Source: Escherichia coli O127:H6 str. E2348/69 (GTDB lineage Bacteria; Pseudomonadota; Gammaproteobacteria; Enterobacterales; Enterobacteriaceae). From it: a stretch of 64,000 bases of DNA. Location of the stretch: assembly GCF_000026545.1 (NCBI RefSeq), contig NC_011601.1. The stretch is one strand, 5' to 3'. Shown one piece after another: positions 38,901-44,900 of the stretch (positions are counted from its first letter, which is position 1; each line of letters opens with the position of its first letter). Position numbers: made by a program.

Positions 38901-41900
38901 GCTGCCGCCAGGACTGGACAGCACCGAGTTTGCAGCCATTGTTGGCAATTTACTTGATAACGCCTTCGAAGCAAGCCTGCGTAGCGATGAAGGAAACAAG
39001 ATCGTTGAATTATTCCTCAGCGATGAAGGCGATGATGTGGTGATTGAAGTCGCCGATCAGGGCTGCGGCGTTCCAGAGTCTCTACGAGACAAAATATTTG
39101 AGCAGGGTGTCAGTACGCGTGCTGACGAGCCCGGTGAACATGGCATTGGGTTGTACTTGATTGCCAGCTACGTAACGCGCTGCGGTGGTGTTATCACTCT
39201 CGAAGATAATGATCCCTGCGGTACCTTATTTTCAATCTATATTCCGAAAGTGAAACCTAATGACAGCTCCATTAACCCTATTGATCGTTGAGGACGAAAC
39301 GCCGCTGGCAGAGATGCATGCGGAATATATTCGTCACATTCCCGGATTCAGTCAGATATTACTGGCGGGAAACCTGGCGCAGGCCCGAATGATGATCGAG
39401 CGTTTTAAGCCGGGGCTAATCTTGCTCGATAACTATCTTCCTGACGGTAGAGGGATTAATTTACTGCATGAACTGGTGCAGGCGCATTATCCCGGCGACG
39501 TGGTGTTTACCACTGCAGCCAGTGATATGGAAACGGTGTCTGAAGCCGTACGTTGTGGTGTATTTGATTATCTCATTAAGCCAATTGCCTATGAACGTCT
39601 GGGGCAAACGCTAACCCGTTTCCGCCAGCGTAAACATATGCTGGAAAGTATTGATAGCGCCAGCCAGAAGCAAATTGATGAGATGTTTAATGCCTATGCT
39701 CGCGGTGAACCCAAAGACGAACTGCCGACCGGCATTGACCCCTTGACGCTAAACGCGGTGCGAAAACTGTTTAAAGAGCCTGGTGTGCAACATACGGCAG
39801 AAACGGTGGCGCAGGCACTGACTATCAGCCGCACCACTGCCAGACGTTATCTTGAATATTGCGCCAGCCGCCATCTGATTATTGCTGAAATTGTTCACGG
39901 CAAAGTTGGCAGACCGCAACGCATATACCACAGTGGGTGACATGATAAAGCCGGAGGAAACTTGCCTCCGGCATGACTATTTACTTACCTGTGACCGCGG
40001 CTGCCGTTCCTGGCACCATCAGCTCTGTAGCAACGATAACAATCACCAAACCAACAAGCACCGGCACCGAGGTGCGTTTTACGACTTCAAACGGCGAGAT
40101 CTTCGCCATCCCGGCAACCGCAACGACTACGCCAGAAACGGGTGATAGGGTACGACCCAGGTTTGACGCCTGCAGCATCGGGATAGTCAAATACGCCGGG
40201 TTAATGCCGGAGGAGTGCGCCAGTTTCGGGATCATCTCAACAAACGCATAAAACGGCGCATTGCCTGAACCGGTCGTGACTGCCGCCAGCATTGTCAGGA
40301 TCACCAATACCAGCATCAGGATGATACTCGCCGAACCAAACGAGGTAGCGATAGAAATCAGACTTTGAATAAAGCCGATGGTGCTAAGCCCCTGAGCGAA
40401 TACCCCAGCGGCAACCAGCAGCATCACCACGTTAGCAAATGCATCTGCCATACCGCGATAAGCCACTTCCAGACCAGAGAAAACTTTCTGGGTATTAAAG
40501 CTGCGGATGAACTCCAGAATGGAGGCAATTAGCATACAAATCACCAGAATAGTGATGATGTGTAATTGCGGACCCCATTTGCCGTCAAAAATCAGCACTC
40601 CGATGATCGGCGTGAACGGCAAAATGGCATAAAACGCAGGGGCAGTGGTGGTGATTTCACTGACATCTAACATTTCATGAGAGATGTGCTCTTTTTTATC
40701 CAGATAACGTTGCCAGAAGAAGTGGGCGATTGCCATGCCGATAATTGCAGCAATTGAGATAGGCAGCGTTGTTTTGAAGGCGAAGTCAATCAGCGACATT
40801 TCGGAAGCCTGCGCCGCCAGCACCACATCCCCTGAAGTCGGTGCGAGAATAATCGCCGCCGGGGAGGCACAAATGGCAGCAGCTGCGCCACGACTGATAC
40901 CAACGTTTACCATCACCGGAAACAGGGTTGCCATCAGCAAAACACCCAGACCGGTTGCGGAAGAGACAGCCAGTGACATCAGACAGGCAACAAAATAGGC
41001 GGCAATCATCAGAAGGTAAGGGGAGTTAATATACTGCAATGGTTTTGACGCCAGCTTGACCACCATATCATTCGCGCCGATATGGGTCATGTAAGCGGCA
41101 AAGCCACACAGCATCATAATCATCATGCCGAGGTCGCCGCCGCGGCTCATTAGCAATATTTTAACGTATTCAACGATATCCGTGGCGCTGTAGCCTGTTG
41201 AAGCCTGGCTGGACGGTAACACTTTGTGCCCCATAATGGCACTGATAATCAGCAATAACAGGCCACCGACAAATAACACGCCAGTGGCAGAATACCCTTT
41301 AATGATGTAGCGAGCTACACCCACAATAACCACAACTCCAATAAGGAGTTCAATGAATGTCAGCATAATTTTTCCTGTCTCCAGGCCCCAAAGTAAATAA
41401 TAAAAAATCTCTAAAAATTAAAGAAAAAATATGCCGAATAAATCACCAGCGAATGCTGATTGAAATCAATAAAAATAGCTATTAACACATTGATATTGCT
41501 GTTTTTTATACCTGGATAACAAAATTCATTTTTGTAGTTAATCATTACAAAGCAATGATGTATGCAAAATTGATAAAATATTGAATTGATTTTGTTGGGA
41601 AATTGATAAATTTTTTGTTTAAAGAAACGGGCGTTCATTAACATGGCCCGGCAATACTGGGAATGTTTATTGATTGATTTTTATATTTGTTTAAAAAATA
41701 AGCGCATTTGTGCTTTTATCTATTGTTGTTTGTATTGGAGGAGTGTTCTTTGATTGAGAACGTTTGCGGGCAAAAAAAATCGTTTAAGTTTCCAGAACAA
41801 TCCGATAATATTCCCTCAAAATTGCACCGCATAAATATATAAAACACTCGGATTATTCCTTATATTGGTGCTGTTAAGGTTATGTTTATTTTAAACTGGT

Positions 41901-44900
41901 TATGCTAGTCGTGGTTTTTTGATAAATATCTCATGGTTACTAATGAGCACTGGTAAATATATTTACGCACTTCTCTTTGTTTTTACTCAATTAGTCGGCA
42001 TTGAAGACGCTTCTGCTGACACACCTCAATGGCTGTCGACATTTAAAGAGAATGTTGCAGAAACATGGCAACAGCCACAACATTATGACTTGTACATACC
42101 CGCGATCACCTGGCATGCGCGTTTTGCCTATGACAAAGAAAAAACCGATCGCTATAACGAGCGACCGTGGGGCGGCGGTTTTGGTCAGTCGCGTTGGGAT
42201 GAAAAAGGAAACTGGCATGGCCTGTATGCCATGGCATTTAAGGACTCGTGGAACAAATGGGAACCGATTGCCGGATACGGATGGGAAAGTACCTGGCGAC
42301 CGCTGGCGGATGAAAATTTTCATTTAGGCCTGGGATTTACCGCTGGCGTAACGGCGCGCGATAACTGGAATTACATCCCTCTTCCGGTTCTACTGCCATT
42401 GGCCTCTGTGGGGTATGGCCCCGCGACGTTTCAGATGACCTACATTCCGGGTACCTACAACAATGGCAATGTGTACTTTGCCTGGATGCGCTTTCAGTTT
42501 TGAGACAAATGAAGTTTTAGTAAATTCTTTAAAATCAACCACTAAAATAATTAACATCAAAAATAACGCGACTTTTATCACTTTTTAGTAAAGTTGCACT
42601 GGACAAAGCGTACCACAATTGGTGTACTGGTAACCGACACAGCATTTGTGTCTATTTTTCATGTAAAGGTAATTTTGATGTCTAAGATTAAAGGTAACGT
42701 TAAGTGGTTTAATGAGTCCAAAGGATTCGGTTTCATTACTCCGGAAGACGGCAGCAAAGACGTGTTCGTACACTTCTCTGCAATCCAGACTAATGGTTTT
42801 AAAACTCTTGCTGAAGGTCAGCGTGTAGAGTTCGAAATCACTAACGGTGCCAAAGGCCCTTCTGCTGCAAACGTAATCGCTCTGTAAGATACGTCAGCAA
42901 GAATTCAAAACCCGCTTAATCAGCGGGTTTTTTTTGGTCTTTAGTGTGCGGTTGAGGCCGAAAACAGCCAGAAAGCCAGTGCGGTCATGGCAAAAGACCC
43001 CAAAAGATTGACGAAAACGTTCAGTAACGCCCAGCCAAAGCGGCCCTCTTGTAACAAAAACACCACTTCTGCCGAAAATGTTGAGAAGGTTGTTAGACCG
43101 CCACAAAATCCGGTGGTGATTAATACTTTCCACACTGGATCAATGTTCGTCATCCTGCTGAACCAGGCGAATCCCATTCCTATGATGAATGCCCCAATCA
43201 GGTTTGCTGCCAGCGTCCCCAACGGAATCGCCTGATGCAGCGGGTTAAATCGCATACTTAACAGCCATCTCGCCACGCTTCCCGTACCACCGCCGATAAA
43301 AACTGCTAAAAGAAGTTGTAACACTGCAAAATCCTGCTATTTGATTTGTATGAATGATAAGTGTAACGCCGAATAATCGCCGTTGGCGAATTTTACGACT
43401 CTGACAGGAGGTGGCAATGCTGGTTGCCGCAGGACAGTTTGCTGTTACATCTGTGTGGGAAAAGAACGCTGAGATTTGTGCCTCGTTGATGGCGCAGGCG
43501 GCGGAAAACGAGGTTTCGCTGTTTGTCCTGCCGGAAGCATTACTGGCGCGTGATGATCATGATGCGGATCTTTCGGTTAAATCAGCACAGCTGCTGGAAG
43601 GCGAATTCCTCGACCGTTTACGGCGAGAAAGTAAACGTAACATGATGACGACAATTCTGACGATTCATGTTCCTTCAACACCGGGGCGCGCGTGGAATAT
43701 GCTGGTGGCGCTACAGGCAGGAAACATCGTCGCCCGTTATGCCAAACTGCATCTCTATGATGCATTTGCCATTCAGGAATCACGCCATGTTGATGCTGGT
43801 AATGAAATAGCTCCGTTACTGGAGGTGGAAGGGATGAAGGTCGGTCTGATGACCTGTTATGACTTACGCTTTCCAGAGCTGGCGCTGGCACAGGCATTAC
43901 AGGGAGCTGAAATCCTGGTACTTCCTGCCGCCTGGGTTCGTGGGCCGCTCAAAGAGCATCACTGGTCAACGTTGCTTGCCGCTCGTGCGCTGGATACCAC
44001 CTGTTATATGGTGGCGGCGGGGGAGTGCGGGAATAAAAATATCGGGCAAAGCCGGATTATAGATCCCTTTGGCGTCACCATTGCGGCAGCGTCAGAAATG
44101 CCTGCACTCATTATGGCGGAAGTGACGCCCGAACGTGTGCGTCAGGTACGCGCGCAACTGCCCGTCTTAAACAACCGTCGCTTTGCGCCGCCGCAATTAT
44201 TATGATGTTTTTTTACTCGGCGCTTGATTCACCTTGTTACAGATTGCTATTGTGTGCGCGCGTCGAATGACCGTTAATATTCTCTGGTTTTTAAGGCGCG
44301 TTCTGTTGCCGGTTATATGTCAAGAAGGTATCTATGGGTGAGATTAGTATTACCAAACTGCTGGTAGTTGCGGCGCTGGTCGTTCTGCTGTTTGGGACTA
44401 AGAAGTTACGTACGCTGGGCGGAGACCTTGGAGCGGCCATTAAAGGGTTCAAGAAGGCGATGAATGATGACGATGCTGCGGCGAAAAAAGGCGCAGACGT
44501 TGATCTTCAGGCTGAAAAGCTCTCTCATAAAGAGTGACGTGGCGAGCAGGACGCTCCCTCAATATCTTGTTCGATACAAAAACCCGCTTCAAAAAGCGGG
44601 TTTTTTATCAGACAGATGTAAGTAATTATTACAGGATTACTTAACTTCCATCCCTTTCGCCTGCAAATCGGCGTGGTAAGAAGAGCGGACAAACGGACCG
44701 CATGCAGCATGGGTAAAGCCCATCGCCAGCGCTTCGGCTTTCATTTCGTCGAACTCATCCGGGCTAACGTAACGTTGAACCGGCAGGTGATGGCGGCTTG
44801 GCTGCAAATATTGCCCCAGCGTTAGCATCGTCACACCATGACGGCGCAGGTCGCGCATTACCTCAATAATTTCTTCATTGGTTTCACCCAGTCCCACCAT

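Follow-up and report, generated by a model that had tools for sequence, protein, structure and literature searches.

Organization of the dcuC-pagP locus

The subject of this analysis is pagP, the gene for the palmitoyltransferase PagP, together with the intergenic region that separates it from dcuC, in a stretch of 64,000 nucleotides (called the window throughout) from the chromosome of enteropathogenic Escherichia coli (EPEC) O127:H6 strain E2348/69 (NCBI RefSeq assembly GCF_000026545.1, contig NC_011601.1). A query of 1,137 bases over the region was 100% identical to three E2348/69 assemblies. The two genes are transcribed divergently, cspE follows pagP, and the same gene pair borders the spacer in every locus examined. 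In window positions, the locus consists of the following:

39981-41366, minus strand: dcuC, anaerobic C4-dicarboxylate transporter gene, left neighbour of pagP (NCBIfam equivalog NF007937, 890 bits)
41367-41942: dcuC-pagP intergenic region, 576 bp, 29% G+C overall, with both divergent promoters inside
41943-42503, plus strand: pagP, lipid IV(A)/lipid A palmitoyltransferase gene, intact, 186 amino acids (NCBIfam equivalog NF008271)

The G+C content in the spacer was 24% to 33% in comparison to about 50% in the flanks, and its length was exactly the 576 bp given in the original prediction (a first reading of the sequence by a model, made without database searches), which had also called it very AT-rich. 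Spacer lengths were alike across species, with 576 bp in E2348/69, 588 bp in K-12 and 571 bp in E. albertii, and the Escherichia spacers compared were all collinear.

A divergent block with sharp boundaries

The flanks of the locus were 97% to 99% identical to K-12 (97% to 99.7% over the strains compared), with dcuC at 97.8% identity to K-12 and 99.6% to a sequence type 131 strain (ST131), and between them lies a divergent block which covers most of the spacer together with pagP codons 1 to 54 and which is 62% to 64% identical to strains of the K-12 type. The divergence is far beyond chance or the usual within-species variation. The original prediction had described a 5' end of pagP unlike that of K-12; the 46 N-terminal residues which it quoted are correct, the K-12 sequence which it set beside them is exactly that of K-12, and the alignment it proposed as a refuting check found the two N-termini not to be identical. 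The block and its boundaries are as follows:

41409-42104: divergent block of the E2348/E. albertii type, minimal extent (248 to 260 differences to K-12-type strains in comparison to 4 to 17 among carriers of the block; sliding identity)
41555-41839: hyper-divergent AT-rich core between the two promoters (about 45% identity to K-12, 58% to 69% to E. albertii)
41338-41409: left recombination breakpoint interval, in and just upstream of the invariant dcuC leader and first dcuC codons
42105-42144: right recombination breakpoint interval, pagP codons 55 to 68, within an invariant segment of 18 residues

When 50-base windows were aligned to K-12, 47 to 50 of the 50 positions were identical up to position 41409 and again from about 42141. 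Inside the block, the identity to K-12 was about 80% at 41410-41510, about 45% with gaps at 41559-41840, 62% to 76% at 41841-42040, and 82% at 42041-42140. ST131, the flanks of which are near-identical to the window, served as the B2 backbone reference for the breakpoints. On the left side, 41337 is the last isolated flank position that differs from ST131, with dense differences from 41409 onward, and on the right side the dense differences end at 42104. The site patterns showed that the window sides with E. albertii against E. coli up to 42104, and with E. coli against E. albertii from 42145 onward. Both breakpoint intervals are conserved sequence of the kind in which homologous recombination would resolve.

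The K-12-type strains themselves differ at up to 54 of about 725 block positions, in comparison to about 30 of 1,400 in dcuC, which suggests further old sub-alleles among them; the region of the block is a general diversity hot spot. Between K-12 and ST131, for instance, 54 differences fall in the block, and the synonymous divergence is 0.26 in codons 1 to 65 and 0.14 in the rest of the gene.

Affinity of the block to Escherichia albertii

In a scan of one genome per species, which returned no representatives of E. coli, E. fergusonii or E. marmotae (E. fergusonii and another clade allele were added through exact-protein look-ups), the best match to the PagP of the window was that of E. albertii with 92% protein identity, in comparison to 85% for K-12, followed by E. 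whittamii and Escherichia sp. E1V33. At 41406-41554, the window was 88% to 91% identical to E. albertii in comparison to 72% to 80% to other E. coli, and at 41840-42138 it was 85% to 93% identical to E. albertii in comparison to 65% to 89% to other E. coli. The whole spacer was 78% identical to E. albertii, and 54 of the 62 N-terminal residues of PagP match E. albertii in comparison to 40 of 62 for K-12. Beyond the block boundaries the window resembles E. coli, with E. albertii at 84% to 93% identity to it. As a separate observation, E. albertii TW07627 (CH991859.1, L100:1951-2454) carries an IS1 transposase gene inside its dcuC-pagP spacer, which splits the region homologous to the block.

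Neighbor-joining trees with 500 bootstraps were built for codons 1 to 65 and codons 66 to 186 separately, with truncated Citrobacter open reading frames (ORFs) left out. For codons 1 to 65, the E2348 type and E. albertii formed a clade in 100% of bootstraps and all E. coli came together in 0%; for codons 66 to 186, all E. coli came together in 100%, the E2348 type grouped with E. albertii in 0%, and E2348/69 stood next to ST131 in 92%. These opposite groupings place a recombination breakpoint inside pagP.

The synonymous divergence behaved likewise. It was 0.99 for codons 1 to 65 and 0.14 for codons 66 to 186 between the window and K-12, and 0.69 and 0.03, respectively, between the window and ST131. 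Between the window and E. albertii it was 0.31 for the 5' part in comparison to 0.90 for the 3' part (about 12 of 45 in comparison to 44 of 85 sites, p=0.009), while K-12 and E. albertii were equally distant in both parts (1.00 and 0.89, p=0.7).

Distribution among E. coli genomes

The survey set comprised 5,426 complete E. coli genomes, of which 5,422 match the query. The block was found at full length in only 18 of the 5,426 (0.33%), with 97.7% to 100% identity, and the remaining matching genomes align only from about window position 41848 onward, at 87% to 90.6%. By megablast, the first 481 bases of the spacer were unmatched in about 5,400 other genomes. When the spacer alone was searched with the more sensitive blastn, the same 18 genomes matched fully and about 5,380 aligned only at both edges, at 76% to 81%. 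E. coli is thus sharply dimorphic at the dcuC-pagP spacer.

The left flanks of the 18 carriers are either ST131-like or IAI39-like, so that the block occurs on at least two flank backgrounds, and the carriers fall into three block subtypes about 2% apart (internal diversity up to about 2% to 3%). The exact E2348-type PagP protein was also present on at least 1,000 contigs of a large collection. The protein is identical in most carriers, with a nonsynonymous divergence (dN) of 0 among the three carrier sequences compared, indicative of purifying selection, and the E2348-type allele is old within E. coli whichever direction of transfer holds. A large protein search could not split the alleles, as the PagP proteins of E2348, K-12 and E. 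albertii fell in one 90% cluster. Apart from this, E. coli FLI21 (NZ_CP139808.1, 3593-4584) has a pagP cut after about 80 codons and lacks cspE, which corresponds to a deletion of the 3' end of pagP and cspE.

The PagP protein

E2348/69 PagP is an ordinary member of its family. It matched the PagP profile NF008271 at full length (residues 9 to 186, 307 bits in comparison to the cut-off of 155), the precomputed domain of all the PagP homologues was PF07017, and residues 28 to 186 align without gaps to the solved PagP/CrcA chains 1MM4, 1THQ and 3GP6. The differences to K-12 are concentrated at the N-terminus, with 21 changes in residues 1 to 31 and 5 in residues 32 to 62, in comparison to 2 in residues 63 to 186. 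Two features lie within this N-terminal part:

41943-42017, plus strand: PagP signal peptide, codons 1 to 25, most residues unlike K-12, A-S-A cleavage motif kept
42018-42080, plus strand: N-terminal amphipathic helix of mature PagP, 21 residues, substitutions mostly conservative, W/F/W positions kept

Alignment with the mature K-12 chain from the PDB gave the putative cleavage position, and by inspection the signal peptide has a basic n-region and a hydrophobic core, with A-S-A before the aligned mature end. Residues H58, D101 and S102 of the precursor, which we take to be the catalytic residues His33, Asp76 and Ser77 of the mature enzyme, are present in the part identical to K-12. With the mature barrel and these three residues unchanged, the enzyme would be expected to work as in K-12.

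Promoter sites and motifs in the spacer

The original prediction had been unable to place a canonical PhoP box or FNR site by eye; this part of it did not hold, since a site of each kind is present in the spacer, near its pagP and dcuC ends, respectively. The sites and repeats are as follows:

41456-41469: FNR-like palindrome CTGATTGAAATCAA, one mismatch to the TTGAT-N4-ATCAA consensus, centre about 96 bp upstream of the dcuC start codon
41567-41615, plus strand: two AAATTGATAAA(A/T)T copies, 33 nt apart
41872-41888, plus strand: predicted PhoP box TGTTAAGGTTATGTTTA (TGTTAA-GGTTA-TGTTTA), one mismatch to (T/G)GTTTA-N5-(T/G)GTTTA
41901-41906, plus strand: putative pagP -10 hexamer TATGCT, 12 nt beyond the PhoP box, shared with E. 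albertii, K-12 and E. whittamii

The dcuC side of the spacer and the pagP promoter stand out as two conserved islands. The FNR-like CTGATTGAAATCAA was conserved in all six Escherichia sequences aligned, and its agreement with the consensus suggests that it may serve FNR control of dcuC. The predicted PhoP box is nearer to the consensus than that of K-12 (TATTAA-GGTTA-TGTTAA, three mismatches; ST131 has TATTGA-GGTTA-TGTTAA), and it is one of only three sites with at most one mismatch in the 64-kb window. Its position agrees with the PhoP site published for crcA (pagP), at a distance of 32 bp from the transcription start (PMC2908699); PhoP-dependent transcription or binding has been reported for crcA of K-12 (PMC2908699). 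The TATGCT hexamer is followed by a conserved TTTTTGATAAAT leader. A simple sigma-70 scan found no -35/-10 pair in the spacer (0 sites), a scan which is uninformative for an activator-dependent promoter as expected here.

The repeated ATTGATAAA motif remarked on in the original prediction was confirmed as an enrichment over shuffled sequence: TTGAT occurs 9 times in the spacer in comparison to 2.6 expected, and TTGATAAA occurs 3 times in comparison to 0.1 expected, and neither count was reached in any of 1000 shuffles. The enrichment was not seen in the spacers of K-12, ST131, E. albertii and E. whittamii. In addition, TTGATAAATT at 41603-41612 agrees at 9 of 10 positions with tCGATAAATT, the high-affinity motif of H-NS (Lang et al. 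2007, PMC2094087), and is a candidate site; matches in DNA of 29% G+C come easily, and both this one and TTGATAAA are weak as evidence.

No insertion sequence (IS), tRNA, terminal repeats or other mobile-element signature was found in the core, and an Rfam scan of 41200-42700 returned nothing meaningful (one hit at E=0.94). A small RNA or riboswitch in the core or in the pagP leader was considered and rejected, with folding z-scores of -0.5 and -0.8 for the two strands of the core and +0.5 for the leader. Separately, five terminator-like hairpins were found in 41300-42100 in comparison to 0.6 expected from shuffles, all with weak stems of 5 to 6 bp, at positions including 41433-41460 (minus strand), 41647-41661 (plus strand) and 41700-41715 (plus strand); the folding of 41620-41730 was no better than that of shuffles.

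Origin of the divergent block

Based on the sharp boundaries in conserved sequence, the incongruence between the 5' and 3' trees, and the occurrence of the block in 18 of the 5,426 genomes, with two or more flank backgrounds among them, we consider it probable that the locus is a mosaic allele generated by homologous recombination, in which about 700 to 800 bp of an old and rare haplotype, with the E. albertii allele as its closest known relative, sits in a B2-like E. coli backbone. An allelic replacement with a breakpoint inside pagP had already been suggested in the original prediction, and the boundaries against ST131 together with the two trees bear it out. The event is of a kind already known, namely a switched intergenic region arising by homologous recombination, extended here into the 5' end of a gene.

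With regard to the direction of the transfer, an old import into E. coli from a lineage related to E. albertii is favoured, at little better than even odds, and an ancestral allele that was retained comes second. If the synonymous divergences to E. albertii (0.31 and 0.90 for the window in comparison to 1.00 and 0.89 for K-12) are taken at face value, the K-12 type looks like the vertically inherited allele of E. coli and the E2348 type like an import, the donor being a lineage nearer to E. albertii, not the sequenced E. albertii itself. Several observations weigh against this explanation. No sequenced donor was found closer than about 78% over the spacer or about 90% over the 5' coding part, and the lowered synonymous divergence in the 5' part is seen in other pairs without the K-12 type as well (0.50 in comparison to 0.96 for the window and E. 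whittamii, and 0.52 in comparison to 0.79 for E. albertii and E. whittamii), so that the K-12 type could be the anomalous lineage.

Retention of an ancestral allele, in which the E2348/E. albertii type would be the original one in Escherichia and the K-12 type a derived or imported one that rose to more than 99% of E. coli in a sweep, is therefore a serious alternative to import, although we regard it as the less probable of the two. A group of the E2348 type, E. albertii and the cryptic-clade species that leaves out the K-12 type appeared in 81% of the 5' bootstraps, and the K-12 type has a dN of 0.13 to 0.25 to every other type. The residues ENIAQTW are unique to the K-12 type; NVA(E/Q)TW is found in all the other enterobacteria compared, with NVAETW common to the E2348 type, E. 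albertii, the clades, Citrobacter and Salmonella. The flanks of the carriers are B2-like and IAI39-like, and these phylogroups are early-branching in E. coli. However, the synonymous divergence between K-12 and E. albertii is equal in both halves of the gene, as in vertical descent, while that between the window and E. albertii is lower in the 5' half, and the E2348 type is absent from the closer relatives E. whittamii and E1V33, which have a third type.

Rapid divergence in place without recombination, by relaxed or diversifying selection on the H-NS-bound AT-rich spacer and the signal peptide, is very improbable. The spacer and the N-terminus do evolve fast across the Enterobacteriaceae, and the polymorphism of the block among K-12-type strains (up to 54 of about 725 positions in comparison to about 30 of 1,400 in the flanks) would fit such a process, but it would not be expected to give boundaries with 98% to 100% identity directly outside, the same block on different flank backgrounds, a grouping with E. 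albertii in 100% of bootstraps, or a synonymous divergence of 0.7 to 1.0 inside one species.

A non-homologous replacement, or a mobile or foreign element inserted into the spacer, would at first sight fit the core identity of about 45% to K-12 and the result that megablast left the first 481 bases unmatched in 5,400 genomes. This explanation was rejected as even more improbable, as the spacer lengths are nearly equal (576, 588 and 571 bp), all the Escherichia spacers align from end to end at 62% to 78% under relaxed scoring, no IS, tRNA, terminal repeats or Rfam family was detected, and the divergence runs on into homologous coding sequence. Since the spacers are collinear and of similar length, the difference amounts to homologous sequences that have diverged to an extreme degree, not to an insertion. 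An artefact of sequencing or assembly of the E2348/69 genome is rejected outright, given that three independent E2348/69 assemblies agree on the sequence without a difference, that it recurs at 97.7% to 99.6% in 15 other complete genomes, and that it encodes a protein found exactly on at least 1,000 contigs.

Possible consequences for pagP regulation

On the mosaic explanation, the replaced segment would run from the dcuC promoter through the whole distal control region and the promoter of pagP to its signal peptide and N-terminal helix. The proximal sites are retained, on the dcuC side the FNR-like one and on the pagP side the PhoP box with the -10 hexamer. The AT-rich core of about 285 bp, of silencer type and enriched in TTGAT(A)AA motifs, is effectively a different sequence, and silencing and counter-silencing would act there. 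The most likely consequence would be an altered H-NS silencing and counter-silencing of pagP. The enzyme is thus probably unchanged and its regulation probably changed; judged from sequence, the swapped spacer would alter control by H-NS and Ler and leave the PhoP activation of pagP and the FNR control of dcuC in place.

Ler is a paralogue of H-NS and the master regulator of the locus of enterocyte effacement (LEE), and in LEE-positive strains the altered core would make pagP responsive to it, as has been reported for E2348/69. In K-12, pagP is repressed by H-NS, which SlyA and RcsB counteract (PMC6106083), with input from RcsB and GadE (PMC6106083; PMC4147861). From a comparison of ler mutants with the wild type, Bingle et al. 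(2014, PMC3891560) reported that pagP (E2348C_0523) is activated by Ler 9-fold in mid-log and 15-fold in late-log phase in E2348/69, an activation comparable to that of LEE genes and singled out by the authors. In EDL933, only stcE, etpC, sfpA and yhaI were activated by Ler outside the LEE, and pagP was absent from the regulon (PMC3891560). The source of Ler target specificity was left as a question in that paper, which does not mention the allele difference. We found that O157:H7 carries the K-12-type dcuC-pagP allele.

It is tempting to view the spacer as a Ler-responsive module, by which homologous recombination has put lipid A palmitoylation by PagP under the LEE master regulator in some attaching-effacing lineages. 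Such a view would explain why pagP is activated by Ler in E2348/69 but not in EDL933, and why the allele occurs almost only in LEE-positive E. coli with a related form in LEE-positive E. albertii; we nevertheless hold it to be rather unlikely and put it forward tentatively.

A conserved LEE1 segment was found in 696 of the 5,426 complete genomes (12.8%). This query was too conserved to single out carriers, for which an espG-yicL junction query and direct inspection were used instead. Of the 18 block carriers, 16 were LEE-positive, namely the three E2348/69 assemblies, ten genomes with an E2348-like espG-yicL junction, and RM14723, Z1323HEC0355 and 2015C-4136CT1, the last with intimin iota. The association gave a naive Fisher p=5e-13, and p=2e-4 when counted as six sub-lineages (five of them LEE-positive). 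As side observations, 2015C-4136CT1 has a P4-like satellite between tRNA-Sec and the LEE (L110:15967-26554), with a reverse transcriptase beside a SLATT-domain protein, a retron-like defence pair, and the two other carriers, AR_0077 and E7-1N7, have between yicS and nepI an eip/eilA/air island, with translocon genes associated with ETT2 (E. coli type III secretion system 2), a HilA-like EilA and a large inverse autotransporter.

A number of results speak against a direct link between the allele and the LEE. The association is confounded by shared ancestry, the allele is present in just 16 of the 696 LEE-positive genomes, and a LEE junction with 99.8% to 99.9% identity occurs in strains with the K-12-type allele. 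AR_0077 and E7-1N7 have no LEE at selC, the one site checked for it, but an intact selC-setC-yicL region with the air/eilA island. The effect of Ler on pagP could be indirect, and the EDL933 Ler regulon is small (four genes outside the LEE), such that the absence of pagP from it may reflect sensitivity and not the allele. The E2348-type allele is thus neither necessary for nor strictly linked to the LEE; the association is suggestive only, and neither it nor the Ler dependence establishes causation.

Comparison with known systems

Switched intergenic regions are known in E. coli and Staphylococcus aureus from the Piggy analysis of Thorpe et al. (2018, PMC5890482), and horizontal regulatory switching in E. 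coli was described by Oren et al. (2014), as reported in Thorpe et al. (2018, PMC5890482). Similar to those cases, the dcuC-pagP locus has two highly divergent spacer alleles at one locus between the same conserved gene pair, the exchange would be by homologous recombination in the flanks, and the expression of the downstream core gene would be expected to change. Where Piggy calls a switch at less than 90% identity or no BLASTN match, the first 481 nt here had no megablast match, the edges were 77% to 81% identical by blastn, and the block was 62% to 64% identical. The key differences are that the E2348/69 block runs about 160 to 200 bp into coding sequence and so swaps the signal peptide and N-terminal helix, that it lies between divergent promoters with both proximal activator sites kept, and that the minor allele stands at 0.33% with an identifiable sister allele in another species. 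The Piggy paper does not mention pagP (PMC5890482).

In comparison to K-12 pagP (crcA), the locus has the same gene, neighbours, layout of PhoP box, 12 nt and TATGCT, and AT-rich upstream region, and it differs in a PhoP box with one mismatch instead of three and in about 285 bp of upstream DNA that is another sequence. Similar to the Ler counter-silenced genes outside the LEE in EPEC, E2348/69 pagP is among those most strongly activated by Ler (PMC3891560), and its promoter region is very AT-rich as in known Ler targets. With the E. albertii locus it shares the synteny dpiBA-dcuC-pagP-cspE-crcB, an identical PhoP box, a 5' coding part 88% to 93% identical and a spacer 78% identical. About 10% to 20% divergence nevertheless remains, so that E. 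albertii is not the direct donor, and, unlike E. albertii, the E. coli version has the TTGAT(A)AA enrichment and the 3' two-thirds of the window pagP are of the E. coli type. In the literature searched, neither the mosaic structure of pagP in E2348/69 nor its affinity to E. albertii nor the coincidence with strain-specific Ler dependence appears to have been described; a search on pagP and albertii returned nothing, and one on pagP, Ler and EPEC returned only Bingle et al.

The modification of lipid A by PagP influences resistance to antimicrobial peptides as well as TLR4 recognition. Although E2348/69 serves as the reference strain for EPEC, the control region and signal peptide of its pagP differ from those on which the regulatory work in K-12 was done, and the K-12 results on H-NS, SlyA, RcsB and PhoP are thus not simply transferable to it. 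The locus offers a clean natural promoter swap, with two alleles for the same enzyme and the same neighbours, which could reveal what gives Ler its target specificity, and it is a record of an old exchange, at a core gene, between the lineages of E. coli and E. albertii.

Other observations in the window

A perfect PhoP box, GGTTTATCATTTGTTTA, with no mismatches was found at 5149-5165 of the window, in the entF-fepE spacer upstream of wzz(fepE). This gene is split into two ORFs at 5201-5554 (117 amino acids) and 5591-6454 (287 amino acids), which cover profile positions 1 to 76 and 91 to 368, respectively, and it is apparently a pseudogene in E2348/69. At about 45843-46560, ybeF shows a deletion of about 350 bp and a poorly aligning stretch relative to K-12, and the gene is annotated in E2348/69 as a frameshifted and truncated pseudogene. 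The deaminated glutathione amidase gene at 43411-44205 is intact in E2348/69 and frameshifted in K-12.

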